Sequence record: MK562505
From: Shigella phage Silverhawkium
DNA length: 64,000 nucleotides
Reading direction: 5' to 3' (one strand)
The translations under genes were made by a program, and so were the position numbers. The notes under the pieces were generated by a model, which was not told the DNA's origin, did not search any database, and saw only the letters and a program-made list of their open reading frames with translations. Below, one piece after another: positions 1 through 60,989 of this stretch. The stretch's first letter is position 1. Each line of letters starts with the position of its first letter.

Positions 1-2373
1 TTATTCCCAACAGCTAGTGTCTTCTGGGATACTTCTTACATTAAACCCTAAGAATTTACCAACCTCTACTGGTGATACTTTATTCCAGTCTAAGTTAGAA
101 AGCAAGAAGTTTTCTTTGCGACGAACTTCAAAATACTTTTTAATCTTATCTTCCAGACGCTTCTTAGCATTATCTAGAGAGCGCTTAATCTTAGACTTTG
201 AACGTGTATGCTTACGTAACACTTCCAAAATACTTGTAGTATCTTTGTAAGCAATTGTTGCAGCAGAATAAGCCAGCTTTCCAAACATAGCCTCAATTGC
301 GTCTTCGTTACCTTCTAAGAATAGTGTCGTATCAAAATCTTTTGAATAAACATATCCTTTGGAACGTTTTTGGTTGTTAAACGTGAATGTACGAGAAACA
401 ACATGGTAATCCGTAATGTCATACTTACTTGAAGCCCACTGATAAATCAGATAACGATGGTATTCTACCCAATGAACATTGTCAATATAATCTTTGAAAA
501 CTTGCTCATTAACTTCTAACCAATCTTCAGGAACCTTCTTCCAGTTTGCTTTACGGAAAACATACACATTCTGTCCAGTTAGCTCTGCAACCAACTTTGC
601 AGCAGTTTCTGGTGAGCATGAAAAGATTCCACCAAGAACTTCATCACTCTGTGCTTTGATATACAGTTGTGGTTCTTCAATGTCATCAAAGTTTTCTTTC
701 ACCTCTTCGTAACCAATGCGACCACTTACAGAGTTCACATAAGCTTTATAGAGTTTGACTACGCCACGAGTGACAGTACGTTTTACGTAATGGTGCTCTT
801 TAGATGACATAGTTTGCACACATAACAGACTCTTGTCAAGCATGTGAAGTGCTGCAAAGTCATCAAACTCCTGCTGGCTTCCAAACACGAATACAATGCC
901 ATTGTAACGTCTGAAAGCTGGATTTTCCTGCTCTCTATCACGGCAAGCACCACGTATAATCTGGTTTTTACCAGTTGTCTTTTCAGACCCGTTTTTGTTT
1001 CGACGGTCATTGATAAGGAACAAATAGTTGCTCAACTTATCTTTACTCATTGCACCAAAGATACTAAACATTGCTGCATCTTGTGAATAAGTTGCTGAAG
1101 TTGCTCGAATACGATTCTCCAGACTGCTGTACTTGTAGTATGCTACAGGTTCATACAGATTACCAATATTAGGAACTGGATTACCATCTTTGTCAAGCCG
1201 CAAGTTACCTGCATCATCTTTCAAGAATGACGGAGAACCATCTGCTTCAGTTAACTGACCACGACGGATACCTAACAGTTTTTGTTCAAGTTTTTTCAAG
1301 TTCTGGCCTTGCCATTCCAGAGAATCTTGGACGTGAATAAAGATTTCACGAGCCTCCTTCCTCATGGTATCATAGGCTTGAGCAGCATCAATCAGAGTTG
1401 GCTTGTTAGCAATCTCTTTTACCACATCTTCTACGATTGTCTTAGTGATTTTCTTCACAGCTTCAACAATCTTGGTCTTAGTGGTCTCATTCATCTGCAA
1501 TGCTTCACGAGATGCAGCAATAGCCACTGAACCAATTGGCATGTAGATGTTAACAAGGTCTACAGCACTACGGAAGAACTGAGGCAGAATGCTTGTAAAC
1601 TCTGAACCAAGCAACTCACCCATTTCAACAGGATAAGCAATATTACCCATGATTACATTGAAATGGACGCTGTTACTATTTGAGCGCCAGTTCTCTTTGT
1701 ACTTCATTGCATCATAGACACCATCTTCACGAGAAATGGAAGTCATTGCTTCAAGAATGTCATAGTACTCAACATTACACTCTGGCTTAACTTTAAAGTA
1801 CGAGTATACATTGCTCGCTTCTTCATGAAACTTGTTGATACGGTTATTGGATACCGCTACTCGAACAGCTAAACCATTTGGCTCTGTAGTTGGGTTAGTA
1901 GTCAACTTAGTTACTTGAGGGATACCATTCTCAAGGTAAACTGAGTATTTGTTAACTACACCATCAACATAGCTTGATACAGTGAATGATTGAGCAATTG
2001 CAAACGGTGACTTTGAACCAATACCCATAGCACCGATGTAGTCATTTGAATCATTCTTTGTTGATTCTCCATAGGTCATGTAAAGTTTCATTACTTTATC
2101 ATGAGTCAGGCCAGTACCAAAATCTCGAACTTCAAAGTATGGTTCGAAGCGAGTTGGTAAATGGACTAAGAATGGCTTGTCAACATTACCTGAATCAATG
2201 TGAGTATCAACTGCGTTACAGGACAACTCACGAATTACAGCACGTTCTTTGTAGGTGTATACACCAGAACTCAGAAGACTAAACATTTCAGGTGTCATCT
2301 TAATCTGAGCTTGAGAAGTTTCTAAAGTATTTGAACTTTTGATAATCTCTGCGTGGTCATTTACCATACGCAT
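1..2373 (-). CDS. rIIA: rIIA-like protein with N-terminal GHKL-type ATPase fold
   Basis: 790 aa; N-terminal region (RAVIRELSCNAVDTH ... RDFGTGL ... GAMGIGSKSPF) matches the T4 rIIA N-terminus as I recall it; stop at 1-3; RBS AAAGAGGA upstream of the ATG. Confidence 0.8.
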   Translation of the reverse strand: MRMVNDHAEIIKSSNTLETSQAQIKMTPEMFSLLSSGVYTYKERAVIRELSCNAVDTHIDSGNVDKPFLVHLPTRFEPYFEVRDFGTGLTHDKVMKLYMTYGESTKNDSNDYIGAMGIGSKSPFAIAQSFTVSSYVDGVVNKYSVYLENGIPQVTKLTTNPTTEPNGLAVRVAVSNNRINKFHEEASNVYSYFKVKPECNVEYYDILEAMTSISREDGVYDAMKYKENWRSNSNSVHFNVIMGNIAYPVEMGELLGSEFTSILPQFFRSAVDLVNIYMPIGSVAIAASREALQMNETTKTKIVEAVKKITKTIVEDVVKEIANKPTLIDAAQAYDTMRKEAREIFIHVQDSLEWQGQNLKKLEQKLLGIRRGQLTEADGSPSFLKDDAGNLRLDKDGNPVPNIGNLYEPVAYYKYSSLENRIRATSATYSQDAAMFSIFGAMSKDKLSNYLFLINDRRNKNGSEKTTGKNQIIRGACRDREQENPAFRRYNGIVFVFGSQQEFDDFAALHMLDKSLLCVQTMSSKEHHYVKRTVTRGVVKLYKAYVNSVSGRIGYEEVKENFDDIEEPQLYIKAQSDEVLGGIFSCSPETAAKLVAELTGQNVYVFRKANWKKVPEDWLEVNEQVFKDYIDNVHWVEYHRYLIYQWASSKYDITDYHVVSRTFTFNNQKRSKGYVYSKDFDTTLFLEGNEDAIEAMFGKLAYSAATIAYKDTTSILEVLRKHTRSKSKIKRSLDNAKKRLEDKIKKYFEVRRKENFLLSNLDWNKVSPVEVGKFLGFNVRSIPEDTSCWE

Positions 2374-22930: not shown

Positions 22931-23734
22931 TTACTGCTCAGTAGCTTGTGAGTTTTCACGTTCAGCCATTGCATCAAGCTGTTCACAGAACTCTTCACCA
23001 AAAGTAATTGCAATCTTTTCACGTACAATTGCTGCACCTGTCTGGGTGAACACTTCATAAAGCGCACCTACACTTGCACCTCCAGACATTTCTTCTACAA
23101 AGCTTGGTTCAGCATCGAGAATTTTTGATACCTCTAAAAGAGCATGGATACCCATCACACTAATCACAGCAGACAGGATTGACGTCAGTTTAATCTGACT
23201 AGTATCAATACCTGCTACAGACTCTGACGCTGCAACTTGCTCAAGTTTCTGCACTGAAGACTTAGCATACTCTTTAGCAACATCAGAGATGGCATCATAC
23301 CCCCAATCCAGCTTTTGATAGCGAGGTGAATGGTCATTCATGCGTTTCTCAAGAGAGGCCATCACAGCAGCAACTGGTGCTACAGTGGCATTTACCAGTT
23401 CTTCTTCGCTCATCTTGTCAAGCTCTTTTAAACCAGCCTCTGTGATTGCATTGTAACCACCTGCATACATCTCATTAAAGATGTACTCAGCAAAAGTGTC
23501 AAGGCCAATTACAATGGACTGTAAAGCGGCTTTACGATTGTCAAGCAAGAACTTAACCTCGTTTCGGAATTTCTCATCAGAGTCTACACCAGCCCCATCT
23601 GGACGGAGTGAGTCTGGGATTACTTTTCCAGACAGTGAATTACTACGCATAACTACAGCAAGTGTCTCCACTGTGTTAAGCAGGAAGTTCTCATTGATAC
23701 CTTTTTCAAGCAACACTTCATTTACAGTTTTCAT
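22931..23734 (-). CDS. hypothetical protein (267 aa); first 37 codons lie in a duplicated segment
   Basis: ORF; no recognisable motif. Confidence 0.45.
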   Translation of the reverse strand: MKTVNEVLLEKGINENFLLNTVETLAVVMRSNSLSGKVIPDSLRPDGAGVDSDEKFRNEVKFLLDNRKAALQSIVIGLDTFAEYIFNEMYAGGYNAITEAGLKELDKMSEEELVNATVAPVAAVMASLEKRMNDHSPRYQKLDWGYDAISDVAKEYAKSSVQKLEQVAASESVAGIDTSQIKLTSILSAVISVMGIHALLEVSKILDAEPSFVEEMSGGASVGALYEVFTQTGAAIVREKIAITFGEEFCEQLDAMAERENSQATEQ

Positions 23735-23877
23735 TTTTAATCTCTCTCATTTTTCCAGACAGTGAATTACTACGCATAACTACAGCAAGTGTCTCCACTG
23801 TGTTAAGCAGGAAGTTCTCATTGATACCTTTTTCAAGCAACACTTCATTTACAGTTTTCATTTTTAATCTCTCTCAT
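23624..23877. repeat. perfect 127-bp direct tandem duplication (23624-23750 and 23751-23877)
   Basis: base-by-base identity of the two copies; covers the 3' end of the upstream gene and the RBS/start plus 37 codons of the downstream gene. Confidence 0.9.
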
Positions 23878-24285
23878 TTTGTTAATAGTAAGTCGTGATA
23901 ATCTTAAACCTTCCTGTGAAGAGAAGTCAAGTCCTTTTTCAGACCTTGGGAAGTAATGCCTATCCCAAGTACTCTCTGCATCTTGAAGAAGTGTTGCTAG
24001 ACTAACTAAGTCTGTTCCGTTTTGCAACTTCTTTTTTAAGGTGTCTATCAAAAATGTTGTATCTTTTGCTTTACGCCTCTCAGAAGAAATCTCCTTCATA
24101 TGCTCAAAGACTGAGCACTTCATTTCTTCGTCATATCCTTCAGACAACTCTATCTCGTGCTGAACATCAACCATACGACGATGTTGATAAGCGTACTCCT
24201 TCTGTGATTCTAAGTCAAGCTTTTCGATTTTCTCTAGAGCCTCAATGAAATTCAAGATATCTGGGTGAACGTACATCCTCTGCAT
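23845..24285 (-). CDS. hypothetical protein (146 aa)
   Basis: first gene of the minus-strand operon next to the divergent promoter region. Confidence 0.45.
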   Translation of the reverse strand: MQRMYVHPDILNFIEALEKIEKLDLESQKEYAYQHRRMVDVQHEIELSEGYDEEMKCSVFEHMKEISSERRKAKDTTFLIDTLKKKLQNGTDLVSLATLLQDAESTWDRHYFPRSEKGLDFSSQEGLRLSRLTINKMREIKNENCK

Positions 24286-24376
24286 GATTGCCTCTGTTAA
24301 GTTTCTATAAAGAGTTTAATCTCTTATCTTTACGTATTCTATACGTATACTTTAAAGCTTTTAAAAGGCTATTAAA

Positions 24377-24434
24377 AGTCTTTTAAGGGTTTTAAAGAAT
24401 CTGTATAGTAAGTCTGTAAAGGGAGTCTATTAAG
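24377..24434. repeat. three direct repeats AGTCT-N-T-N-AAG in the divergent intergenic region
   Basis: agtcttttaag (24377-24387), agtctgtaaag (24411-24421), agtctattaag (24424-24434) in an AT-rich region. Confidence 0.5.
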
Positions 24435-24452
24435 ATAAAACCCACTTCGAAA

Positions 24453-24482
24453 AGATTAACACCTTGTCAAGTGCTTTGTCAA
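24453..24482 (-). promoter_or_regulatory. candidate leftward sigma70-like promoter (-35 TTGACA, -10 TAATCT)
   Basis: two tandem minus-strand TTGACA hexamers at 24465-24482. Confidence 0.3.
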
Positions 24483-24543
24483 CTTGCTTTTTCAAAAAAA
24501 GTAGAGTAGTGTATTAACCAGACTGATTTGAGAGGGAGTTAAA

Positions 24544-27243
24544 ATGGAAAATGTAGATTTTGAAAACTTGCATTTAGTTGGTGATACAGAAACTGATGGG
24601 TTGTTGCTTGAGTTCACAAAAGCTCACGTTATGGCCTTTGCAGATTACAAAGATGACAGTGACGAACCTCCTGTTTGGGTATTCACTGATGAACCTATCC
24701 TTGGTCACAAGTATACCAAATACATTAAAGGTGGCTTACGAGAAGGGGTTGAGTTTGCTTTAAAGGCAAAAAGACTTTGCATCCACAATGGTCTGGGTTA
24801 TGACTGGTGGGTGTTTAACCACATTGCACCTGATTTATGGAACTTTGATAATCCAAAGTGTAAACCTTGGGGTGATTTCTTCCAAGACTCACTTATTCAG
24901 TCTCGCGTTCAGTGGATGGATAGGCCAACACCAAAAGGCTACAAAGGTGCTCACGGATTGGCTGCGTGGGGTGCTCGTGTTGGTGTTCGTAAACCTGAGA
25001 TTGAAGAGTGGGGTGTATGGAATGCAGAAATCCTTAACCGTGTTGTTGAAGATATCCGCATTAACGCCAAAGCAAAAAGGGCTATGGATAATGAGTATCT
25101 AAAACTGAAGAAGTGTGGTGTTGATACTTATGAAACATACATGAGAGCCAAGGAAACATCTTTTTGGATGAGTCAGCAAGCAATCAATGGTTGGAAAGCT
25201 GATATCAACAAAATGAAAAGTTGTATCAAAGAGTTGGATAAGATGACTTCTGACTTAGCTTCTGAGGTAGAACCATTCTTACCACCAACTATCAAAACAA
25301 AAGGTAAAGTTACTGGTGAAGAATTTGCCAAGTCATGGAATGAGTACGTAGAGACATTTGGTGGTGCAGATGGTTTGAAGAGAATCACAAAGTACCCTAA
25401 GACAAAATATCGTCAGCAGGTTCGTAATGGTGAGATGCAAAGTTACCCTATCAAGCCATATGGAAAACCAACTACAAAGATTTTCAGCATTGAAAAAAGA
25501 AATTGCTACACTCCAACTAACACCGTTACTGGAGAAGAGTACAAAGAAGGTTTTGTAGCGATGAAAGATGCTCGTGCAGTTTGCAATGAGTTAAATGCTA
25601 AAGTGGATAAGAAGTGCAAAGATTGGAAGCCAGTTAAGACGGTGAAGATTGTGAAGTACTACAACAACCATGTAGTTAATCACTTTGGTCTTGAATCAAG
25701 TCGATACACAGGGTTGATTGATGCACCGTATACACCTATTGAGTTTGAAGTGTCACGAATGACTCAGGTGGCTGTTGTTAAGGATTACTTGAAGACTTTA
25801 GGTTGGATTCCTGATGATTGGAATTACAAGAAGGATTCAGATGGTCGTCCTGTGAAAGTTTGTCGATTCAAAGACAATAAGAAAATGATTCGCAAGCACC
25901 CAAAATGGGATGAAATGGTTGAGCGTTGTGGATTGAACTATGTTGAGCACGAAGGTATTCAGTACATTGAGCATAACTGGTCTGTCAAAAAGTACACAGA
26001 CTTGCTTGAGCCTTGCTTGATTCGTACTTCACCAAAACTGACTGAATCATCTTATGACACCATTGAAGGTGAACTTGGACAGAAGATTGCGAAGTACTAT
26101 ACTTTGATGCACCGACGTAGAACTATTGAGAACTCAAAAGATGATGAAAAGGGCTGGTTGAACCAGATTCGTCCAGATGGTCGTTTGAGTGCTGGTGCAA
26201 TGGTGTTTGGTACATCTACTGGACGTATGACGCAGTATGGTATTGTAAACGTACCTTCTGGTGCTGCCGTTTATGGGGAACCAATGAGGGCAGTTTGGAT
26301 TTGTGAAGAAGGGACAAACGTAGTCTCTGTAGATATGAACTCTGCACAGCTTGTTCTTCTTTGTAACTTTATGGGTGATAAGGATTTCACAAAGGCTGTA
26401 ACTGAAGGTAAAGAAGAGATTGAGTTTGTTCGTCAAGAAGATGGTCGTTACTATTGCAAACACTTTGATGAATACTTGAACCCTGAAGTTGACAAGTATC
26501 TTCGTTATGACCATGAAAATGACCTGTATGTAGTTTACTCAGGTACTGATGCTCATACACTGAACAGTATCTACTTTAGTTTGAATGATGAGCAGGATAT
26601 CTTGACTTGTCGTATGACTCAGGATGAAAATCTTCTTCACGAAATTAGTAAGGGTCGTAAGAAAGCTAAGAATGGTATCTATGCACTGTTGTTCGGTGCA
26701 GGTGATGAAAAGTTTGCTAAGACCATTAAAGCAGCTACCACTCAGGAAGGTGCATTAACTAAACAGACTTACTTTGTGCGTTTGCCGAAGATTAAGAAAC
26801 TGTTAGACAACTTAGAAGCCGACTTTAAAGCTACTAAGAAAGCACTGGAAGAGGTGTTTGGTAAAACTGCTGCTATCGCTAAAGGTGGTTTTGTTAAGGT
26901 TGCTGGTGCTTGGTTGTGGTGTAAATCTCCACATAAACTTTTGAACTATCTGTTGATGGGTTCAGAAGCACAAGTACAGAATGAAGCAATCAACCTTGCT
27001 TGTCGTCGTATGATTGATGAAGGGTTAATGAAACTGAATGGTCGTAAACCAGCTATTGGTGCTCGCCTACTCTGTGCTTACCACGATGAAACAAGCTGGG
27101 AATGTCCAGAGAGCATGACAGCAGAAGTCAAAGCAGTAACTGACTGGTACTACGGGCAAGCTTCTAAGAACTTAGGTCTTAAAAAAGATACCCTTGTAAC
27201 TGGTGCTGGTAAGGTTGGTAAAAGCTGGCTGGAAGTTCACTAA
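24544..27243 (+). CDS. DNA polymerase, family A, with 3'-5' exonuclease domain
   Basis: 899 aa; exo motif LVGDTETDGL; motif A-like VDMNSAQLV, motif B-like KNGIYALLFGAG, motif C-like YHDE; GAGGGAG RBS. Confidence 0.9.
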   Translation: MENVDFENLHLVGDTETDGLLLEFTKAHVMAFADYKDDSDEPPVWVFTDEPILGHKYTKYIKGGLREGVEFALKAKRLCIHNGLGYDWWVFNHIAPDLWNFDNPKCKPWGDFFQDSLIQSRVQWMDRPTPKGYKGAHGLAAWGARVGVRKPEIEEWGVWNAEILNRVVEDIRINAKAKRAMDNEYLKLKKCGVDTYETYMRAKETSFWMSQQAINGWKADINKMKSCIKELDKMTSDLASEVEPFLPPTIKTKGKVTGEEFAKSWNEYVETFGGADGLKRITKYPKTKYRQQVRNGEMQSYPIKPYGKPTTKIFSIEKRNCYTPTNTVTGEEYKEGFVAMKDARAVCNELNAKVDKKCKDWKPVKTVKIVKYYNNHVVNHFGLESSRYTGLIDAPYTPIEFEVSRMTQVAVVKDYLKTLGWIPDDWNYKKDSDGRPVKVCRFKDNKKMIRKHPKWDEMVERCGLNYVEHEGIQYIEHNWSVKKYTDLLEPCLIRTSPKLTESSYDTIEGELGQKIAKYYTLMHRRRTIENSKDDEKGWLNQIRPDGRLSAGAMVFGTSTGRMTQYGIVNVPSGAAVYGEPMRAVWICEEGTNVVSVDMNSAQLVLLCNFMGDKDFTKAVTEGKEEIEFVRQEDGRYYCKHFDEYLNPEVDKYLRYDHENDLYVVYSGTDAHTLNSIYFSLNDEQDILTCRMTQDENLLHEISKGRKKAKNGIYALLFGAGDEKFAKTIKAATTQEGALTKQTYFVRLPKIKKLLDNLEADFKATKKALEEVFGKTAAIAKGGFVKVAGAWLWCKSPHKLLNYLLMGSEAQVQNEAINLACRRMIDEGLMKLNGRKPAIGARLLCAYHDETSWECPESMTAEVKAVTDWYYGQASKNLGLKKDTLVTGAGKVGKSWLEVH

Positions 27244-27303: not shown

Positions 27304-27522
27304 ATGACACTTTCAGAGATTGAAGTACAATTGCAGTGTGCAGGTTATTCTCAAAAAGAGATTGAAGGTATGTTTATTGCTCTTTGCAGTGGTTCTAGAA
27401 ATTTGAAGGTAAACCCTGAAGTTCTGCGTAAAGTAGATATCTTTATTGCTGGTGGGAAAATTGCAAAAGATAAGACAGGCTACTTAAAAGGTGAGCACGT
27501 AGATATTGAGAGTTTACTATGA
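27304..27522 (+). CDS. hypothetical protein (72 aa)
   Basis: ORF with AGGAGG RBS. Confidence 0.4.
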   Translation: MTLSEIEVQLQCAGYSQKEIEGMFIALCSGSRNLKVNPEVLRKVDIFIAGGKIAKDKTGYLKGEHVDIESLL

Positions 27523-27728
27523 GCCACCGTGGAAGAACACATCTGGCAATGATGAAAGATGCTTCAAAGGAGACTATTAAGAACCGTAAGCAGAAGTTGT
27601 TTGAGAGGATGAACAGACTCATTGATAACACTTCTCTTTCTGGTAGTGAGAAGGTTTTCTTGAAAGGGAATCTGAAAAGTATTGCACAGGAACTTATTGA
27701 CATTGAATTTTGGAGACACCAAAAATGA
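27519..27728 (+). CDS. hypothetical protein (69 aa)
   Basis: translationally coupled ORF. Confidence 0.4.
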   Translation: MSHRGRTHLAMMKDASKETIKNRKQKLFERMNRLIDNTSLSGSEKVFLKGNLKSIAQELIDIEFWRHQK

Positions 27729-27976
27729 GCAGTAGAGAAGAAGAAGCTTTAGCAATCTTCAAGAATGAAGACAAATCAATAGCTTTTGTCTCAGAGGCTT
27801 GGTGCAGAGGTTTGGGATATGATTGGTATCTTTTCTTATGCGCTAAGAAAGATGTTAAACCAGTTGATGAAACCCGATTCAAAGAACTGTATAATATCTG
27901 CCAAGAGGGTTATGAAGAACATTACAAAGGTTCTTTGAATCCTGTAAATTCAAAAGCTTCAGATTTATTTTATTGA
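27725..27976 (+). CDS. hypothetical protein (about 83 aa)
   Basis: start set at MSSREEE. Confidence 0.4.
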   Translation: MSSREEEALAIFKNEDKSIAFVSEAWCRGLGYDWYLFLCAKKDVKPVDETRFKELYNICQEGYEEHYKGSLNPVNSKASDLFY

Positions 27977-28531: not shown

Positions 28532-29632
28532 ATGACAATTCTGTACAAACAAAATAAAGATGGCTCTTTTAACGTCTGGTCATGTGTTGCTGTAGGTGAC
28601 AAAGTCGTCACAACTTATGGTAAAGAAAATGGCAAGATGATGTTTGAAGAGTACACAGCAGAACCTAAGAACATCGGTAAAAAGAATGAGCGTAATGCTG
28701 AACAGCAAGCTCTCTTTGAAGTTGCTGCTAAGTACAAGAAGCAGGTTGACCGTAAAGGGTATGCTTACACAAAATCTGAAGCAGAGAATGTTGAAAAGGT
28801 TGGTGTACAGCTTGCTCAGGATGCTTCCAAGATAAGTCACAAGAAGTATCTGGTATTCCCTGCCGATGCTCAACCTAAACTTGACGGGGTTCGTTGCAGG
28901 ATTTCAAGAGATGCTGACTCAGAAAGTTTTACAGCATATTCTCGTGAGAACACGGTATACAACATTCCTGTAGAGTTGATTCCTGATGTTCTTCTTATGC
29001 TGAAGCTTCATAAAGATGTTGAAGATTTCGACGGTGAGATTTATGCTCATGGTTGGGACTTGGAAGATATTGTGTCTATGATTAAGAATGCTGACAATCC
29101 AGACCGTCACCTTCTTAAATTCTACTGGTATGATATCTGTGACAAGACTAAATCTTGGCCTGAGCGTCGTGAAGTTATTGATAATTCACCAATCGTTGAA
29201 CTCGGTGATGCTTGCAGGGTTGTACCTGTTCAGACAATCCGTGTTAACTCTTGGGAAGAATTTGATAATGCTCATGACAATTGGGTTAAACTCAAGTTTG
29301 AAGGGGCAATGTATCGGTCAATCTCACCAGATTCGTTCTATGAGTGTGGTCACCGTTCGTACTTCTTGATTAAACACAAGAAGATGCACACGCAGGAGTT
29401 CATAGTAACTGCTGTCAAGACTGATAAACGTGGTCACGGTAAGTTCGTTGTAGAGACCCTTCCTAACGTCTTTGTAGATGTTTCATGGAAAACTACCCAT
29501 GAGAAGAAGCAGCATCTTGCTGAACATCCTGAAGAGTTTATCGGGAAGCCTTTAACGGTTCAGTTCCAGAAGATGACTCGTAAGGGGTCTTTACAGTTCC
29601 CTGTTGGGCTTGTTATACGAGATTATGAATAG
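28532..29632 (+). CDS. ATP-dependent DNA ligase
   Basis: 366 aa; adenylation motif I KLDGVR. Confidence 0.8.
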   Translation: MTILYKQNKDGSFNVWSCVAVGDKVVTTYGKENGKMMFEEYTAEPKNIGKKNERNAEQQALFEVAAKYKKQVDRKGYAYTKSEAENVEKVGVQLAQDASKISHKKYLVFPADAQPKLDGVRCRISRDADSESFTAYSRENTVYNIPVELIPDVLLMLKLHKDVEDFDGEIYAHGWDLEDIVSMIKNADNPDRHLLKFYWYDICDKTKSWPERREVIDNSPIVELGDACRVVPVQTIRVNSWEEFDNAHDNWVKLKFEGAMYRSISPDSFYECGHRSYFLIKHKKMHTQEFIVTAVKTDKRGHGKFVVETLPNVFVDVSWKTTHEKKQHLAEHPEEFIGKPLTVQFQKMTRKGSLQFPVGLVIRDYE

Positions 29633-29854: not shown

Positions 29855-30111
29855 ATCACTTAAGAGTCTTTGAAAAGGATTTTTAAGTGATATTTGGTAT
29901 GGTATGGTACGGTTCGGTGGTGTATGGTTTGGTTCGGTGGTGTAAGGTGTGGTCCGGTAAAGTATGGGTAGTTAGTCTCAGCTACATTAAAATGAGACTT
30001 ACCTTTTTAAAAGGTCTTGAAGAGGGTCTTTTAATAAGGTAGGGTAAGGTTAGGTAAGGTATGGTTGGGTTAGGTATGGGTGGATGGTAGTAGCCACGTT
30101 AAAAATCTACC
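29855..30111 (+). repeat. noncoding modular repeat region 1: two units of hairpin + phased GGTNN array + hairpin
   Basis: hairpin atcacttaa/ttaagtgat (29855-29891); 15 in-phase pentamers (29896-29970); hairpin agtctc/gagact (29974-29999); second array (30038-30088); hairpin ggtag/ctacc (30086-30111); no ORF of 60 aa or more. Confidence 0.8.
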
Positions 30112-30169
30112 AAGTTTCTAAAGAGTCTTCTGTTGAGGGTTCTTTATAAACAACTTAACAATAAACTAA

Positions 30170-30775
<606 letters not shown>

Positions 30776-30777
30776 TT

Positions 30778-31218
30778 ATGAATACAAAAGCATTAGCAGC
30801 AAAGTTTAGTTACGGTGATACTGTATCACACTCTGAGATGGACACCTTCTTAGGTATTGAGAAGCCAACTTATCAAGGTAACATTGTTAAGTACGAAGAT
30901 GAAATGAAGGCTTACGCGCTTACACGCCTAAATCGACTTGAGAAGTTTATTGAGAAGCTTCTTAAAGAAGAGAAGATTTATCTGGTTGCTTCAATGGGTG
31001 TTGGTTATCGCGTGGTTGAACCCAAACATCAAGCAACTATTGCAAAACGTAAAATGTCTAGTAAGATTGGTCGTGCTTTAAAGCAAGCCACTCAAGCGAT
31101 TGAGAATGTGAACACTATGGCACTGAGTCATCAAGAACGTTCACGACTGATTGAACAGCAAAACCATTTAGCTGCCATGAAAGCTAACATTAACAAACAA
31201 CGTAGAAAGCCTTTCTAA
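30778..31218 (+). CDS. hypothetical protein (146 aa) with basic C-terminus
   Basis: ORF 3 nt after the previous stop; C-terminus NINKQRRKPF. Confidence 0.5.
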   Translation: MNTKALAAKFSYGDTVSHSEMDTFLGIEKPTYQGNIVKYEDEMKAYALTRLNRLEKFIEKLLKEEKIYLVASMGVGYRVVEPKHQATIAKRKMSSKIGRALKQATQAIENVNTMALSHQERSRLIEQQNHLAAMKANINKQRRKPF

Positions 31219-31229
31219 GTTGATTAGGT

Positions 31230-31252
31230 AGCCTCTTCGGAGGCTCCTTTTT
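31230..31252 (+). terminator. rho-independent terminator after the cassette
   Basis: AGCCTC-ttcg-GAGGCT followed by a T-run. Confidence 0.6.
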
Positions 31253-31253
31253 A

Positions 31254-31512
31254 AAAGGTCTTTAAAAGGGTCTTTTAATAAGGCTCGGCAATGTTCGGCA
31301 TGGTCTGGTATAGTCCGGTGCTGTTCGGCGTGGTAAGGTGAGGTATGGGTAGTTAATCGGAGCTACATAAAAATTCGATTACATCACTTAAGAGTCTTTG
31401 AAAAGGGTTTTTAAGTGAGGTTTGGCTCAGTATGGTTATGTGTGGTGATGTGTGGTTCTGTAAGGTCATGTTTGGTATGGAAGGATGGCAGTAGCCTTAT
31501 AAAAAATCTGCC
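31254..31512 (+). repeat. noncoding modular repeat region 2: same module family as region 1 in a different order
   Basis: arrays at 31282-31351 and 31424-31488; hairpins aatcg/cgatt (31355-31380), atcacttaa/ttaagtga (31383-31418), ggcag/ctgcc (31487-31512). Confidence 0.8.
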
Positions 31513-31983: not shown

Positions 31984-32187
31984 ATGAAGAAGAACATCTG
32001 TAGAACAGACTATGGTGAAGTGGTCGATGATGACGGAGTAGTTATTTACAGAGTTTGGGCTAATGATTTTGCAACCGTTGTAGAGTCTTTAGATAACTAC
32101 ATCAATGGGACTCGTGAAAACGTCAGAGCAACTAATCTTGATTCGTTAATCGACACTTCCAGAAAACGGAGAAAGAAAGATGAATGA
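31984..32187 (+). CDS. hypothetical protein (67 aa)
   Basis: ORF overlapping the next gene by 8 nt. Confidence 0.4.
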   Translation: MKKNICRTDYGEVVDDDGVVIYRVWANDFATVVESLDNYINGTRENVRATNLDSLIDTSRKRRKKDE

Positions 32188-32479
32188 GGTTTTTGACCCT
32201 TATGCTCCACAAGATGATTGGGAGGCAAATAGAGAGGCTGAAATGGAAAGCTATATCTGTCCAATGGATGTTGAAGAAATGAGAGAGTTCGTTTCTTACA
32301 GATTCAGAAAAGAGATTGAGAAGCGAAAGTACTCTCAAGCACAAGTTGCAAAGATTTGTGAAATATCTCAAGCAAGAGTCTCGAACATCATTAATGAAAA
32401 TGGTAAAGTAACTCTCGAATACATGCTCAGGGCATGTGAAAAACTAGGTGTAAATTTTAACTTAAGGCTGGCAGACTAA
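32180..32479 (+). CDS. helix-turn-helix DNA-binding protein (XRE-like)
   Basis: 99 aa; SQAQVAKICEISQARVSNIIN fits an HTH motif. Confidence 0.5.
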   Translation: MNEVFDPYAPQDDWEANREAEMESYICPMDVEEMREFVSYRFRKEIEKRKYSQAQVAKICEISQARVSNIINENGKVTLEYMLRACEKLGVNFNLRLAD

Positions 32480-32480
32480 T

Positions 32481-32840
32481 ATGAAAACTCAAAATGCAAT
32501 CTTCAATGACAACTTTGCTCTTGGATTTTATGGTAAACCTACAAGAGTTGAGAAATCGTTTGGTGAAGAACTCTTATCTGTTTTGAAGAGTATGTACAAA
32601 GATGGTAAGATAAAACACACTGAAAAGAAGCGAATCGCTGGATACATGACGATTGGCTCTGCTATCTCAAACATTAAACTTGAAACAACATGTGCTCATG
32701 ATGTTCGCAACAAGTTTATAAAGGAACTTTTTGACAACATTGATGGTGTTTCTGTGAAAGCTATCTGGTTAAATGTTGATGGTACTAACTACACAACATT
32801 CACTTTCAAAAACGAGGATATCAAATGTCTCTTCCCATAA
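32481..32840 (+). CDS. hypothetical protein (119 aa)
   Basis: ORF. Confidence 0.4.
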   Translation: MKTQNAIFNDNFALGFYGKPTRVEKSFGEELLSVLKSMYKDGKIKHTEKKRIAGYMTIGSAISNIKLETTCAHDVRNKFIKELFDNIDGVSVKAIWLNVDGTNYTTFTFKNEDIKCLFP

Positions 32841-33328
32841 AAATAAACTTAGTCTTTGGATTTAACGTTCTAAAGGGTCAAATACTGAGTCTCCCAAAGT
32901 CACCTTATCGCACTGATAAGGGTTCAGTGAAACGTGCTGCACACTATAACAACAATTTAGGTGCTTTGCAGTCTCTATATGAGTGGCTTGATGAGGATGG
33001 AAGACTCAATGAATACCTTCATCAACTTAATTTGACATTGGAAGAGGGCAATATGGTTTATAACCACCTTCCACAACTTTACACGCCAATGTCACCAACT
33101 CAGCAAAACTGGAATGAACGTGCTTTAGATGGGTATAGCACAATTACACACTCGAAAAGTCTGGACAGCACACCTGAGTACAGGAAACTCAGAGAGATTA
33201 TCTACCAAACTATAGGTAAGAGAGTTTCAAAAGGGCTTGGTTACAAAGAAAAGGTTGACTGGAATACACAAAAGTGTATAAAATTCTACTCATTTGATAA
33301 TGAGAAGCAGACATTTATAGAGGTTTAA
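32825..33328 (+). CDS. hypothetical protein (167 aa)
   Basis: ORF. Confidence 0.4.
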   Translation: MSLPIKINLVFGFNVLKGQILSLPKSPYRTDKGSVKRAAHYNNNLGALQSLYEWLDEDGRLNEYLHQLNLTLEEGNMVYNHLPQLYTPMSPTQQNWNERALDGYSTITHSKSLDSTPEYRKLREIIYQTIGKRVSKGLGYKEKVDWNTQKCIKFYSFDNEKQTFIEV

Positions 33329-33329
33329 C

Positions 33330-33851
33330 ATGCAAAAGATAGGATTCCTGTTGATACAACCAGAAGCTATTCTATTAAAAGGTATCATTTCAAGCCATTT
33401 TAAGAACAGAAACCTCCAAGAAGGTGAAGTTCTGATTGAGACAAACTATGAAGCTGGCACAACTGAGTTTGTTGATGCAGATACTGGAGATTCACTTTGT
33501 ATTCTCCCTTCACACTTGTTCACACCGGAGTTGAGAGATTCTAAATCAATCTCTATGAAGCTGGAGTCAAGTATTGAACTTTATGAGGATACTCAGTATC
33601 CAAGAAGCTTCAAATCTATGTTGAACATCTTCTTAGAGGATATCAAAGAGATTGTGAAACCAGAAGCAGGGAAACATATAGTGACTGCTGAGTGTCCAAA
33701 TGGGACACACATAACATTTACCGGAGATTTTGGTTCAATGGAGTTTCTGAGTTTTGTACCAAAACACTTCGTAGATTTCTTATCAACTGAGTGTGATGAT
33801 TTAGATTTCATCGTTGATATTCAACAAATATTTAAGGTAAACAAAAAATGA
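33330..33851 (+). CDS. hypothetical protein (173 aa)
   Basis: ORF. Confidence 0.4.
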   Translation: MQKIGFLLIQPEAILLKGIISSHFKNRNLQEGEVLIETNYEAGTTEFVDADTGDSLCILPSHLFTPELRDSKSISMKLESSIELYEDTQYPRSFKSMLNIFLEDIKEIVKPEAGKHIVTAECPNGTHITFTGDFGSMEFLSFVPKHFVDFLSTECDDLDFIVDIQQIFKVNKK

Positions 33852-34120
33852 AAATCTTTGAAAAGTTTGAACAATGTTACGCTCAAGATGGTGAGCCTTT
33901 GAAATGCCCCACTTGTGGAGGTTCAAACTTCCAAGGTGAAATTTCAGAGATTGTTGCTGGGAACATAGCTGAAGAGTACACACGCTGTATTGATTGCAAT
34001 AACATTGTATCTTTTTGGGCGTATGGTAGCTATCAACCACAACCTAAGCTGGTGTACCATCCGGTAAAAATCATCAAAGATATTGCAAACTGGTTTGTAA
34101 TTAAGGGGTTCACACAATGA
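33848..34120 (+). CDS. small zinc-ribbon protein
   Basis: 90 aa; CPTCG ... CIDCN cysteine pairs. Confidence 0.45.
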   Translation: MKIFEKFEQCYAQDGEPLKCPTCGGSNFQGEISEIVAGNIAEEYTRCIDCNNIVSFWAYGSYQPQPKLVYHPVKIIKDIANWFVIKGFTQ

Positions 34121-34662
34121 TTCGTTTAGTATTTGCAAGTGGTAGAAAAGGTGAGTTTGGTTGCCCTAGTGGGATGCCTTGGGAACGTAACCGTGAAGAC
34201 ATGAAGGAGTTCAGGAAACTTACTGAAAACCAACTAGTGGTTATGGGTAATGAGACCTTTAAAAGCCTTGGTAGAAAGCCTTTACCAAACCGTGAGAACA
34301 TGGTTTTATCAAATAACCTACCATACTATGGTATAGATTTTGATAATGAAAACTTTGTCATTGCAAAGGTTGAACCAGACTCTTTTGGTGCATTCCTTAA
34401 AAAGATTGATAAGCAAATTGATGAAGATGTTTGTGTAATCGGTGGTGCAAATATCTTGAAAGCTGCCTTACCATTTGCTGATGAGGTTTACCATACAGTA
34501 ATTTATGAGATTACTAAGGAACCGACTGTCTATTTACCTGAAGAGGGTTTCTTTGAGTATTTGCATGAGAAAGAGTTATTTGCTAGAATACAATCTAAAC
34601 CGTTAGCTGACAAATCTGGTGTAGTTAACTTTTATGTACCACAAGTAAGAGGACGTTTTTGA
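34117..34662 (+). CDS. frd: dihydrofolate reductase
   Basis: 181 aa; N-terminal MIRLVFASGRKGEFG...GMPW and later VVMGNETFKSLG resemble the DHFR fold motifs; directly upstream of thymidylate synthase. Confidence 0.75.
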   Translation: MIRLVFASGRKGEFGCPSGMPWERNREDMKEFRKLTENQLVVMGNETFKSLGRKPLPNRENMVLSNNLPYYGIDFDNENFVIAKVEPDSFGAFLKKIDKQIDEDVCVIGGANILKAALPFADEVYHTVIYEITKEPTVYLPEEGFFEYLHEKELFARIQSKPLADKSGVVNFYVPQVRGRF

Positions 34663-34663
34663 T

Positions 34664-35563
34664 ATGTCACAAGCAGATGTAAGTTACAAAGGGATACTCA
34701 ACCATGTTCTTTCTGTTGGAGAAGAACGTAAAACAAGAACTGGAAAGGTAGTATCTACATTCGCACCACCTGAGTTTCGATTTGATATGCGAAGCGGGTT
34801 TCCATTAATAACTTCGAAGCAAACATTTATGCGTCAAGTTTTAGGTGAAGCTCTATGGTTCCTCAACGGAGAAAACAAACTAGGTCACTTACGTTACAGG
34901 ACTTGGGGTGAAAACGATGGAGAGCGTTGGACTATCTGGTCAGATGATTTTGAACGTTGGCTGAAGACAACTTATGCAACTGAAACAGATTGGTTGGAAG
35001 ATGCAGGTGGAAGAATCTATGGAGTCCAATGGAGAGCCTACGAAGGTCATGGAGGGGTTGTTGTTGACCAGCTAACCAATCTTGTAGAGAAGATGAAAAA
35101 CTCTCCTACAGACCGTTATATGCTGGTTAATGCGTGGAATGCAGCAGATATTGCAAGCAACTCTATGGCATTAGCACCTTGTCATGTTCTGTTTCAGATT
35201 TATATCTCTAACACTGGTGAGGTTGACTTGAAATGGTATCAACGTTCCTGTGATACATTCTTAGGTTTGCCATTTAATATTGCATCGTATGGGTTTATTT
35301 TGGAAGTTTTGTGTAAGATGACAGGGTTGACTCCACGATACCTCATTGGTACTTTTGGAGATACTCAAATCTACATGAACCATATGCAACAAGTTTACCA
35401 GTTGCTTGCAAATGAGGATTACCCAGCACCTAAGTTCGAGATTGGTATCAACCTACACAGCATGGAAGACTTAAAACACTTAACAGCAGATGATTTTATT
35501 GGTGGTTTAACAGACTACCGACATGCTGGTAAAATTGAAGCTCCACTGTCAGTAGGTAAGTAG
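34664..35563 (+). CDS. td: thymidylate synthase
   Basis: 299 aa; active-site region LAPCHVLFQIY and folate-binding region; no intron interruption seen. Confidence 0.85.
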   Translation: MSQADVSYKGILNHVLSVGEERKTRTGKVVSTFAPPEFRFDMRSGFPLITSKQTFMRQVLGEALWFLNGENKLGHLRYRTWGENDGERWTIWSDDFERWLKTTYATETDWLEDAGGRIYGVQWRAYEGHGGVVVDQLTNLVEKMKNSPTDRYMLVNAWNAADIASNSMALAPCHVLFQIYISNTGEVDLKWYQRSCDTFLGLPFNIASYGFILEVLCKMTGLTPRYLIGTFGDTQIYMNHMQQVYQLLANEDYPAPKFEIGINLHSMEDLKHLTADDFIGGLTDYRHAGKIEAPLSVGK

Positions 35564-45630: not shown

Positions 45631-47846
45631 TATTCATCCTCTGGGTAGCTAGAGTTTAACAAAATATCTTCCTGATTCTTATCAGTGATATCAACCATCT
45701 TAGTAGCAATCTGCTTACCATCCAGATTAAACGAGACATTAAGAGTTTGCTTAGTTTGCATTGGGAATCCAGAAGGTGTCATCATCATAGGTGTCTGGTT
45801 AAACTTAGTTGCAAAGTTGTTTAGAGACTCAGACAGGTTATTCATAATAATATCCCAATTCGACAAACCATTATCAACTCTCTGAATATTTCCAGAGGCA
45901 TCTGTGGTATATTGTGCAAACTGGAGTTGTCCATTCTGGTCAAAGAACATAGGGCGTTTAGCATTGGTAATCCCAGCAGTAGCTTCGTTGAAAGGATTTG
46001 GTGTATTAACATCACTAAACCTCTTTCCAGCATTAGGGTCAGAAGACCTAGATAGTGCCATTGTTGCCAAGGCTACCTTTACTTGAGGTGGCATTAAAAA
46101 TGGAGATGCTCTTGGTGCAACTTTCTCAGCCACCTCAATGCCAAATCTCTGAAGAATCTTTCGTACAATTGCTGTATCAAAGAATCCAGTGATAAGCTTC
46201 GCCACTTTAGCAACGGTTGCTACAGCACCACCAATAGCAACAACCGTTGCAAGGAACTCTGAAGCTTCTTTCACTAACTTCTGCTGTCCAGCATCCATTT
46301 CCTTGTAATAACCCATTGCTGTGTAGTACAATGAAGAAATGCGGTACATAATATCTGTCACGAAGTCTAGAAAGTTACTAGCACCTTTCAAAAGGTAACC
46401 AATACCAGTACCAAGAGCTTCAGAAGTACCTAAAGAGCCTTGCAAGAACATTGCAACTGAGTTAGATAGCTGTGAAATACCATCACTAGAGTTATTAAAC
46501 AGGGCTACCAGAGTGTTATCCCACATAGCCTTTGCCTGACCCATAGATGTTGCTGTCTGCTTGGAAACGGCATTCATACCACCTGCTGCATCCACCAACT
46601 CTCTCATTTTCTCAGAGACTTTTGGAAGAACATCTTTAGCAAGCAACTTACCGTCTTGCATCAACTTATCAAGCTCCTGTGGAGTCTTGCCAATAGCATC
46701 AGAGAATAACTGAACAGCACCTGCTAAACGGTCACCTAACTGACCACGAAGTTCTTCAGCCTGAATCTTACCTTTAGATGCCATCTGTTGGAAAGCAACC
46801 ATGATACCTTTCAAGTCTTCATCAGATGCCCCTCTAATACGAGAGAACATTGCAGCATTTTTATAGAACTCTTGAGTACCCTGAAAACCTAGTGTTGGTT
46901 GAGCACCAGCAGCAAAGTTTGAGTACTGTTTCATAGTGTCTGTATAGTTCTGACCAATCTGGTGAGCGAACGTTGCAGCGAACATTCTAGCTTGCTGTGT
47001 ATCTCCACCAAAAATAGCTGTGGAAGCTAATTGTGCAGACTGTCTTTTAATACCAGCATCAATTGTCTTTTGAGCTAATTCAATCATAGCATATGCAGAT
47101 ACAAATCCACCGATTAACTGTCTCAGTGATGAGTTTGCTCTATCCTGTAGCCATGCTGATTCTTTGACTGCCTTAAGTCTAGCATTTTCTGCAATAACCC
47201 AACGTTTGGTTGTGTCAATGAGCTTTTTAACTTCCATCTCATATTCACCAACCTTTCCACTCCCTTTATACTTGTTATAGATGCCTTGTAAGTTTCCTCT
47301 AAAGGAAGCAGCCATTTGGTTTCCTTGTCCACCAATTGTTTCAAGACGACGAGTTAACCCAGAATAGAAGTTGTTATTAAACATCCTTTCCATCTGTCTC
47401 TGAGCAATATCCGGTCTTACTCTTGGTGAACCACCACTACCACCTGTTGGTGGAATATTATTACCACGGCCTTTACCAGTTCCACCACGAATATTAACTT
47501 TACCTTCAACATTCATAGCTTGTCTTAAAACCTTGTTAATTTCTTTGGCTGTTTTCTTACCTTGTGTCTCTAATTTACGGAGAGACTTAACACCTTGAGA
47601 ATCCAAGTTTAGGGCGTTATTTAGGGATTTATTGATTCTGCCCGAAGCAGTCTGAGCGTTTTTAACAAGTCTGTTTAAAGCTTCTTGAGAACTTTTATTA
47701 GGCTTCACATCAAAAGCTTTGTTAATATTTCTTTCAATACGTTGAGCGGATTGCATAGCCATCTTTTCAACTCTTTGTAAGCCTTTAACTACTTTTTCAC
47801 TGAATCCAAGTTCAACAATAAAACTATCAACTGTATACTGTGCCAT
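45630..47846 (-). CDS. tail tape measure protein
   Basis: 738 aa; long helical, Gly/Ala-rich, low-complexity; located after the chaperone pair. Confidence 0.7.
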
Positions 47847-53441: not shown

Positions 53442-53819
53442 TTACAGGCCAGTTGGGACGAAATCAATACCTTTCGCCTTCAGAGCAGTCTTGACAGCAG
53501 CAGCATCAACGCTTTCTGCCAAAGTCAGCATGTCTTTCAGTTCAGCGTCACGGTAGATACCAACGACTTTTAACTGACCATGATAAGACAGTTGCAGGTC
53601 TGCGTAGAAGTTGACGATACATACAGAGTCTGCCTGAGATTCTTCACCTGCTGCGACCTTAGTACCATCAGCTTTCAGAACTTCACCTACACGGTATTCT
53701 GTGCTGGCTACTGGAGCGTACTCTTTACGAGAATGTCCAGTTGGTGTAATCTGTTCCCAAAGGATAATATCGTTAAGAGGTTCTCTGTTACCTAATTTAG
53801 TAAAACCTTGATATGCCAT
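53442..53819 (-). CDS. head decoration/accessory protein
   Basis: 125 aa between protease and capsid genes. Confidence 0.4.
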   Translation of the reverse strand: MAYQGFTKLGNREPLNDIILWEQITPTGHSRKEYAPVASTEYRVGEVLKADGTKVAAGEESQADSVCIVNFYADLQLSYHGQLKVVGIYRDAELKDMLTLAESVDAAAVKTALKAKGIDFVPTGL

Positions 53820-53831
53820 TATTTGTGTTCC

Positions 53832-55178
53832 TTATTTGATAAGAGTTTTCAAAGCATTCTGGAGAGCCAGTTTGCGTTGGTCAGCGTTAGCATTAGCATT
53901 TGCTTCTGGAGCGGTGTCTTTACCGTCATCCACTTCTGCTTCACCGTCATTTCCAATTTCTTCCATTGCGGTAGAGTGTTCCAGAACAGCACCAGCAGTT
54001 TCTTTCAGCTTAGTGATTTCTGAATCTTTCTCTTCCATTGCAGAAGCATGGGACGCGATAGTTTCATTAAGTTTCTGGTTAGCACCTTCCATAGCATTCA
54101 TAAACAGAACACTCAGAGGGTTGTCAAGACCAGCACCTAAAATAGCTGTTGCAGCTTCTTTTGCATCAAACCCGAAAGCTTCAGCAGAAGCAGAAATCTT
54201 GCCAGTTAAATCTGACAGTGCAGCTTCCTGTTCTTTAGCTTTCATTTGAGCAACCTGAAGACGCAGAGCTTCTAGTTCTTGCTTTTCTTGTTCAGTCATT
54301 TCTTCACCTGAATTGTTAACGTTTAAACTTACAGGAGCCTCTTCAGAACCTTGTAAGTAATTTAAGAAATCATCTTGAGACATGATTGAGTTAATTAAAC
54401 CAAGTTCAAGAGCTTCCTGAGCAGAATAAACATTCGCCTCAGTATTCTTTACAGCTTCTTCAGAGATGTTACGAGACTCCGCTACAAAACCTGTAAAGGT
54501 TGAATAGGTGTCGTTAATTCTCTTTTGAAGTCTTTCTTTGCTTTCTTCTGAAAGTGCTTGGAATGGAGAACCCATACCTTTAAATTCACCAGCTTTGATA
54601 ACGTTAATAGTAACGCCATTCTTTTCAAATGCCTTGGTCAATTCTTGGTGAACCATAATTACACCAATTGAACCAACGTCTGCATCTGGTGATGCAATAA
54701 TTTCTTCAGCAGAAGATGCAAGAGCATATGCAGCGGAACAAGCGAACTCATCTACATAAGCGATAATTTTCTTTTGGCCTCTTGAAGCCATAATGTGACG
54801 TGCCAACTCAAAGCAACCTGACGCTTCACCACCACCTGAGTCAACGTGCAGTACAATTGTCTTAATAGATTCATCTGCTAAGGCTTCATCAAAACCTCTG
54901 CGTAAACCTTCATAAGAACTCAGACCACCTGTACACATTGCATCCATGAATGTCATACGATGTGTTAGGCCACCCATAATAGGAATAATAGCAATATCAT
55001 CTTTAACTTTTAAAAGACTTCTTGCTTCACCTTTAGGTTTATCAAAATTGACTGCTGCTTGAACTTCACCTAGCAAACGGTTATTAACATACGTCGCTGC
55101 TGAGTGAGCTAATGATTCAGTGGCTAGTAAAGGTTGGTTGAATAATCTATCAGCAAGTCTGAAGATATTCGAACTCAT
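53832..55178 (-). CDS. prohead protease (S49/ClpP-like) fused to scaffold-like C-terminal domain
   Basis: 448 aa; LHVDSGGGEASGCFE serine-protease region; C-terminal Ala/Glu/Lys-rich coiled coil. Confidence 0.6.
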   Translation of the reverse strand: MSSNIFRLADRLFNQPLLATESLAHSAATYVNNRLLGEVQAAVNFDKPKGEARSLLKVKDDIAIIPIMGGLTHRMTFMDAMCTGGLSSYEGLRRGFDEALADESIKTIVLHVDSGGGEASGCFELARHIMASRGQKKIIAYVDEFACSAAYALASSAEEIIASPDADVGSIGVIMVHQELTKAFEKNGVTINVIKAGEFKGMGSPFQALSEESKERLQKRINDTYSTFTGFVAESRNISEEAVKNTEANVYSAQEALELGLINSIMSQDDFLNYLQGSEEAPVSLNVNNSGEEMTEQEKQELEALRLQVAQMKAKEQEAALSDLTGKISASAEAFGFDAKEAATAILGAGLDNPLSVLFMNAMEGANQKLNETIASHASAMEEKDSEITKLKETAGAVLEHSTAMEEIGNDGEAEVDDGKDTAPEANANANADQRKLALQNALKTLIK

Positions 55179-59545: not shown

Positions 59546-59621
59546 TGGAGTATCGGAAGGGACTCGAACCCTCATAAACCTGTTTTGCAGACAGGAACAT
59601 ATCCATTTCTGTCACCGATAC
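59546..59621 (-). tRNA. tRNA-Cys (anticodon GCA)
   Basis: manual cloverleaf; anticodon loop CTGCAAA; T-loop TTCGAGT; CCA encoded. Confidence 0.7.
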
Positions 59622-59627
59622 ATAATT

Positions 59628-59720
59628 TGGAGGAAGATACCAGACTTGAACTGGTACGCCGATTTCTCGGTTACTGGCAGTTTAGCAAACTGCTCCCTTA
59701 CCTGTTAGGGTTAATCTTCC
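59628..59720 (-). tRNA. tRNA-Ser (anticodon GCT), long variable arm
   Basis: anticodon loop TTGCTAA; type II variable arm; T-loop TTCAAGT. Confidence 0.65.
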
Positions 59721-59722
59721 AG

Positions 59723-60457
59723 TTATTTGTTAAGTGCATCTTTCATTTCTGGTGTAGAGATAGAGTCAATAACACCAGTCTTACAAGCATCATCAAACCA
59801 GTCTGGTAAGACATTTGCAAGAAAACCGTTAATGTTTGTCTTAAGATACTCAGCCATCAATGCTACTTCATCAGCAATCATCTGTGTGACTTCTGAAGCG
59901 TATGCAGTAATCTTTGACATACCTTCATTAATCGCTGTAACAGCTTGTGAGGCTAAATCTTCGATTGTATCAAGCCCTTGGTCAATTGCATCTTGTAAGT
60001 CGCTTAGAACGCCGTTTACAGCGTCTATGGAGGTGTTTATAATCTCCATAGCTTTGTTACCATACTCAGTAGCAACTCCCATAATCCCACTGAATGGCGT
60101 ACAACCAACTTGTTCACCTGCTGCTCCCATTACATTAGAGTAGCCTTTTGCCACCTGCATTCGTTGAGAGAACTCATCTACAGATTTCTGACCATACTCA
60201 GTCAGTGTAGTGGTTGTTGAAGTTGTACTGCCAAGACTTGTTGTGAAGCTACTTAAGAGTGCTGCTGTTAATCCAGCCGCAATAAGCTTATCTTGCACAG
60301 TCGGGTCTGTTACGGAACTAATAGAGTTTACTAATGACTGAGAGGCAGCAATTGTACCACCAAGGACTGCTGCACCAGTAATAAGAGGGTTTGAGAAACC
60401 ATTACCAGTTTTAAGGAGATTAAAAATCTCTTTACTTTGTTCTGTCATCTCTTTCAT
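59723..60457 (-). CDS. membrane protein embedded in the tRNA array
   Basis: 245 aa from MKEMTEQ (TAGGTG RBS); two hydrophobic segments, Ser/Thr-rich stretch, acidic helical C-terminal domain. Confidence 0.5.
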   Translation of the reverse strand: MKEMTEQSKEIFNLLKTGNGFSNPLITGAAVLGGTIAASQSLVNSISSVTDPTVQDKLIAAGLTAALLSSFTTSLGSTTSTTTTLTEYGQKSVDEFSQRMQVAKGYSNVMGAAGEQVGCTPFSGIMGVATEYGNKAMEIINTSIDAVNGVLSDLQDAIDQGLDTIEDLASQAVTAINEGMSKITAYASEVTQMIADEVALMAEYLKTNINGFLANVLPDWFDDACKTGVIDSISTPEMKDALNK

Positions 60458-60473
60458 TATGCACCTATAAAGT

Positions 60474-60546
60474 TGGTAGCCCATCGGGATTTGAACCCTG
60501 TTCTCATGTTTTTCAGACAAGCGCTTTAACCATATAAGCTAATTGA
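60474..60546 (-). tRNA. tRNA-like element, isotype unresolved (possibly aberrant)
   Basis: acceptor pairing and TTCAAAT T-loop present; no canonical anticodon stem or D-stem found. Confidence 0.3.
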
Positions 60547-60547
60547 G

Positions 60548-60624
60548 CTATTAAATTGGGGTGACCTACGGGAATCGAACCCGTATAGACCATGTTCACA
60601 GCATGGGTCATTATCCATTTATGA
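60548..60624 (-). tRNA. tRNA-His (anticodon GTG)
   Basis: anticodon stem CCATG/CATGG, loop CTGTGAA; T-loop TTCGATT. Confidence 0.7.
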
Positions 60625-60664
60625 TAAGGCCACATTTAAGGACTCTCGTAAGAACCCTTAGAAG

Positions 60665-60740
60665 TGGCAGCAGTATAAGGATTTGAACCTTAATCTTTCA
60701 GCTTCAGAGGCTGGAGCATTGCCAGTTATGCTATACTGCT
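60665..60740 (-). tRNA. tRNA-Gln (anticodon CTG)
   Basis: anticodon loop CTCTGAA with one stem mismatch; T-arm TAAGG/CCTTA. Confidence 0.55.
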
Positions 60741-60746
60741 AATATT

Positions 60747-60817
60747 TGGTACTCCATATCGGATTCGAACCGATACATAACACAGATTTTAAATCTGGCC
60801 TCTCTGCCAATTGGAGT
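60747..60817 (-). tRNA. short tRNA-like gene, anticodon unresolved (possibly TAA)
   Basis: good acceptor and T-arm (ATCGG-TTCGAAT-CCGAT); anticodon region folds non-canonically. Confidence 0.4.
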
Positions 60818-60827
60818 AATGGAGCCT

Positions 60828-60903
60828 TGGCGGGGGATGATGGAATTGAACCATCTTCTTCGATTTCAAAGACCGAGGTTTTAACCTTGTAAACTAATCC
60901 CCT
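60828..60903 (-). tRNA. tRNA-Gln (anticodon TTG)
   Basis: anticodon stem TCGGT/ATCGA, loop CTTTGAA; A1-C72 mismatch. Confidence 0.6.
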
Positions 60904-60911
60904 ATTAAATT

Positions 60912-60988
60912 TGGTGCAGAATAGAGGATTCGAACCCCTAACAAACAACTTCGTAGATTGCTGTTCTATCCATTTGAACTAATTCTGC
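60912..60988 (-). tRNA. tRNA-Arg (anticodon ACG)
   Basis: perfect acceptor GCAGAAT/ATTCTGC; anticodon loop CTACGAA. Confidence 0.6.
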
Positions 60989-60989
60989 A

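Follow-up and report, generated by a model that had tools for sequence, protein, structure and literature searches.

Tandem duplications arising at short direct repeats are well known in phages, the classical examples being those of T4 rII and of lambda, and short junction microhomology is usual in real duplications formed by slippage or illegitimate recombination. A perfect direct repeat of 127 nt in a lytic phage is readily lost by homologous recombination. Direct repeats are also generated by sequence assembly: a circle that closes in a de Bruijn graph is given as a linear contig with k nucleotides common to both ends, and 127 is the maximum k-mer that SPAdes accepts.

"127 bp artificial overlaps" on SPAdes contigs of phages have been documented and are routinely trimmed (PMC5923482, PMC9331655, PMC8104045). 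They have been described as "127 bp artefactual DTRs" and removed as an assembly artefact (PMC9331655), and in one genome announcement a 127-bp terminal repeat was removed and the genome re-opened only afterwards (PMC8104045). The Phage Annotation Guide counts repeats that have ended up mid-sequence among the common submission errors (PMC8785237). Genuine direct terminal repeats (DTRs) have been reported for Felixounavirus phages by PhageTerm (PMC11737134; PMC8303462), and the length reported in one Felixounavirus is 581 bp (PMC8303462).

The window analysed here, i.e. the whole stretch of 64,000 nucleotides from Shigella phage Silverhawkium (MK562505), belongs to a FelixO1-like myovirus of the genus Mooglevirus and is colinear over its whole length with Shigella phage Sf13 (NC_042017). 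It carries a perfect tandem repeat that shares with the SPAdes end overlaps a length of exactly 127 nt, 100% identity of the copies and occurrence in a phage genome with a circular assembly. It differs from them in that its copies adjoin each other within the sequence, whereas the known overlaps lie at the two ends; rotation of the contig to the rIIA start before trimming would account for this position. The head-to-tail order and the intact flanking genes are features in common with the T4 rII and lambda duplications, as may be the short TTT microhomology, but here the repeat length equals an assembler parameter, near-identical genomes lack the duplication and there is no sign of selection. 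Like the DTRs of Felixounavirus and other Ounavirinae, the repeat is a direct repeat of a genome segment, which can be misplaced within a submitted sequence; unlike these (~581 bp), its unit is coding and lies in an operon of overlapping genes. We consider it very likely that the duplication is an artefact of assembly or re-orientation and not a biological event.

The repeat and the genes at its edges

Base-by-base comparison confirmed the identity of positions 23624-23750 (copy 1) and 23751-23877 (copy 2) noted in the preliminary description: the two form a tandem of a 127-nt unit with 100% identity, for which TRF gave a period of 127, 2.0 copies, 100% matches and a score of 514. At an offset of 127 the run of matches was 130 nt long, since copy 2 is followed at 23878-23880 by the TTT with which the unit begins, a junction microhomology of 3 nt, while the same scan revealed no extension of the repeat to the left. 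An exhaustive scan of the 64 kb, covering unit lengths of 20-2000 nt, found no other perfect tandem duplication, which excludes a chance origin. The novel junction between the copies (23741-23760) reads TCTCTCTCAT up to the join and TTTTCCAGAC beyond it, and the junction-spanning sequence diagnostic for the tandem form is TCTCTCTCATTTTTCCAGAC.

Two genes of the minus strand meet at the repeat. The first, at 23845-24285, encodes a gp102-like protein of 146 aa (phrog_4039, function unknown) ending in ...MREIKNENCK, and the second, at 22931-23734, a gp101-like protein of 267 aa (phrog_4251) beginning with MKTVNEV.... They are the counterparts of gp102 (phrog_4039) and gp101 (phrog_4251) of Sf13, which overlap by 17 nt and sit between the genes for dNMP kinase and DNA polymerase. 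Read on the minus strand, the unit comprises the last 10 codons and the stop codon of the gp102-like gene, followed by the RBS, the ATG and the first 37 codons of the gp101-like gene. Copy 1 runs on into the rest of the gp101-like gene, of which it carries the real RBS, ATG and first 37 codons, and copy 2 is continuous with the gp102-like gene and carries its real last 10 codons and stop; both full-length genes are thus intact despite the duplication. Between them, an ORF of 47 aa (23718-23861, minus strand) joins the first 37 codons of gp101 in frame to the last 10 of gp102. The anatomy given earlier for this region (10 plus 37 codons, a duplicated RBS and start, a 47-codon chimeric ORF) is therefore correct in the sequence, with the genes placed on the minus strand.

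An exact-protein search found the 47-aa ORF on record in no assembly, and this ORF is, together with the duplicated initiation region, very probably absent from the real phage. The exact 267-aa gp101 protein was not on record either, and a gp101 protein search of viral contigs gave no match. No domain was found in gp101 or gp102 by a Pfam search, and the PHROGs matches of the two proteins yield family names only. The label "minor tail protein", which PHROG and RefSeq give to the gene at 22931-23734, is odd amid a replication module and looks unreliable.

Copy number in related phages

The preliminary description had proposed a comparison with related phage genomes as a check, and this comparison revealed a single copy of the unit in all relatives compared. 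Matches to the region were present in 40 INPHARED records, representing ~34 phages, and in each of the 40 the region matched in one place and in one piece. The identical 146-aa gp102 was encoded on six independent contigs (Logan assemblies SRR36525998, SRR33454302, SRR29213559, SRR24723887 and SRR20303004, and the NCBI assembly GCA_033239445.1), in all of which gp101 lies next to it with the normal overlap. In an alignment of the region, the six contigs as well as Sf13 displayed a clean gap of 127 columns, and the exact 127-mer occurred once in each of four of the six; 38 further relatives likewise lack the second copy. The contig L005, with a single copy, is 99.6-99.8% identical to the window at the nucleotide level on both sides of the repeat, a figure that comes from L005 alone, L006-L010 having been compared by DNA search and alignment rather than by BLAST.

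The contig from GCA_033239445.1 (L006, ABONIR010000004.1) is 89,262 bp long, i.e. the length of a whole phage; it encodes the identical gp102 and, over the 375 positions aligned, shows a single difference to the window. It may be the genome of a phage that was carried into that assembly.

Neither a 39-mer nor a 20-mer spanning the junction was found in ten loci that make up seven relative regions (six contigs and Sf13), and the 39-mer was also absent from the viral contigs of IMG/VR. A 41-mer internal to the unit gave no match in IMG/VR viral contigs, JGI metagenome contigs or GTDB genome contigs, so that the metagenome and GTDB contigs hold no carrier of the exact unit sequence in which the junction could be tested; a search of E. 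coli genomes and plasmids likewise gave no match. Most likely, the phage has a single copy of the 127-nt unit.

Origin of the second copy

The artefact would have arisen during the handling of a circular assembly. A de Bruijn-graph assembler (presumably SPAdes, or one of its wrappers Shovill and Unicycler) run at k = 127 would have closed the genome circularly and written it as a linear contig, with the 127 nt at its beginning recurring at its end. If the submitter then cut this contig at the conventional rIIA start and pasted the old ends together, leaving the 127-nt overlap untrimmed, a perfect tandem duplication would have resulted, with these ends meeting head-to-tail at 23750/23751. Pasting two graph-adjacent SPAdes contigs end to end with the k-nt overlap kept would have the same effect. 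In the phage itself, the unit would then be present once, gp102 and gp101 would overlap by the normal 17 nt, and the 47-aa ORF would be missing.

The unit length of 127 nt, equal to the maximum SPAdes k, and the 100% identity of the copies are both in agreement with this mechanism; if the lengths of real duplications are broadly distributed, the exact length would favour an artefact by a few hundred-fold. A little more weight is added by the evidence for rotation. The window opens on an rIIA homologue (1-2373, minus strand) with its stop codon at base 1, and this base aligns with base 1 of the Moogle, Mijalis, Michonne, KPS64 and 3HA14 records. The start common to these records means that the sequence was rotated and that the ends of the original contig are now interior; we infer that they were joined at 23750/23751. 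The preliminary description had left the choice between a very recent event and an assembly artefact. The length of 127 nt, the rotation and the single-copy relatives strongly favour the latter.

The Sf13 record itself (NC_042017.1/MF158040.1) has identical ends: its bases 1-248 equal 87323-87570, in a stretch coding for tail chaperone / tape measure. Probably, an end overlap left by assembly was not trimmed here, which would mean that such overlaps do occur among the public records of the clade.

A real, very recent tandem duplication, private to this phage, appears improbable; it would have arisen by replication slippage or illegitimate recombination at two TTT triplets that lie 127 nt from each other, and would have given the 47-aa chimeric ORF an RBS of its own. 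The 3-nt TTT microhomology at the junction argues for such an event, which it was estimated to favour roughly tenfold, an extension of at least 3 nt being expected by chance at 5.9% of positions for hypothetical 127-nt overlaps in a single-copy version of the window. Moreover, a real duplication would be viable, given that it leaves both flanking genes intact, and its absence from relatives would fit an event confined to one lysate. However, a real duplication offers no reason for a length of exactly 127 nt (~10−3 under a broad length distribution), and the same absence extends to six contigs with an identical gp102 and to ~34 more distant relative phages. The copies show zero divergence, the junction was never met elsewhere (IMG/VR contigs, seven relative regions), no selective benefit is evident, a perfect 127-nt repeat is prone to loss in a lytic phage, and the record shows the very rotation that an artefact needs. 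A more specific version, in which TTT slippage a few generations ago, beside a recombination-prone junction (~35 nt from an edge of Sf13 identity), gave a 47-aa chimeric micro-ORF between normally overlapping genes, seems, if anything, slightly less plausible. If true, the duplicated translation-initiation region would show a lytic phage in the act of forming a new ORF de novo.

It is highly unlikely that the repeat is a genuine short DTR whose terminal copies were both kept and then rotated to abut; the tandem order would even then be an artefact of representation, but the site would mark the physical ends of the genome. The DTRs reported for Felixounavirus phages lend this explanation some basis, as does the remark in the Annotation Guide that terminal repeats may land inside contigs (PMC8785237), but the unit fails to match the known termini of the group in length (127 nt against 581 bp) or position. 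It is wholly coding and spans the gp102 stop and the gp101 start, in a replication module where these two genes overlap, an unlikely site for packaging ends; six contigs from independent samples read straight through it, and 127 would be the k of the assembler. Equally slight is the probability that contigs from two phages of a mixed lysate were joined into a chimera, in which the overlap would mark the passage from a divergent left part to one on the right that resembles Sf13. Identity to Sf13 is indeed ~81% for 20 kb leftwards of the repeat (about 67-87%, including the unit) and 100% for ~2.6 kb rightwards from 23915. However, the same mosaic (a divergent gp101 allele beside an Sf13-identical gp102) was found without the duplication in the six independently assembled contigs, which shows that the combination of left and right parts is natural; the unit itself lies in the divergent block, the switch in identity falls ~35 nt outside the repeat, and the presence of ~9 blocks of 100% identity in the window is ordinary phage mosaicism.

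With a single copy being most likely, the duplication has almost certainly no biological weight. The MK562505 record is probably 127 bp too long and carries a spurious 47-aa ORF, and an untrimmed overlap of this kind would lead comparative or machine-learning scans to false calls of a "recent duplication" or a "novel small gene". In a re-opened genome, a perfect tandem unit equal to a common SPAdes k (55, 77, 99 or 127) is a simple general flag for the error.

Mosaic structure and other features of the window

Against a background of 80-90% identity, the window contains ~9 blocks that are 100% identical to Sf13 (1013-1847, 23915-26513, 27304-27807, 29336-29592, 32146-35286, 46726-47045, 53776-53942, 60521-60825 and 61902-63201). 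Judged from the sequences, this fine-grained mosaic indicates recent recombination between Moogleviruses. Given ~9 blocks, the chance of a repeat lying as near to a block edge as the duplication does to the one at 23915 is roughly 2%. Since this edge is shared by the six single-copy relatives, it is older than, and unrelated to, the duplication; the coincidence therefore weighs equally on the artefact and on a real duplication.

Two readings of the identity pattern around the repeat were rejected. The jump from 81% to 100% had been considered as a scar of chimeric assembly or of recombination, which is contradicted by the mosaic of the single-copy contigs and by the distance of ~35 nt to the switch. 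A homology boundary at the edge of the repeat had been suggested by the megablast matches, all of which start at query position 852, the first base of copy 2; with blastn, copy 1 together with the left flank aligned to the very Sf13 bases that copy 2 matches, so that the megablast start merely reflects a cut by the junction.

At ~27250, just after the DNA polymerase gene (24544-27243), the window is without the HNH homing endonuclease gene gp104 of Sf13 (68091-68618 in Sf13). The flanks of this site are 96-100% identical to Sf13, which points to a presence/absence polymorphism of the homing endonuclease within a recently exchanged block.

The region 29855-31480 contains four copies of a composite intergenic module (starting at 29855, 30002, 31246 and 31383), each consisting of a stable hairpin-forming palindrome of ~35-40 nt followed by a GGT-rich array of ~60 nt (TRF periods of 15 and 20 nt). 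Enclosed by these copies are the genes at 30173-30775 (phrog_4652) and 30778-31218 (phrog_5926), both of unknown function. This stretch of ~2 kb is missing from Sf13 and matches 248 other phage records, nearly all of them Ounavirinae (103 over at least 80% of its length), and is thus ordinary for the subfamily. The repeats may be terminator or promoter modules.

Finally, 24 tRNA genes are clustered on the minus strand at 59546-63896, an arrangement that is typical of FelixO1-like phages and colinear with the tRNA array of Sf13.
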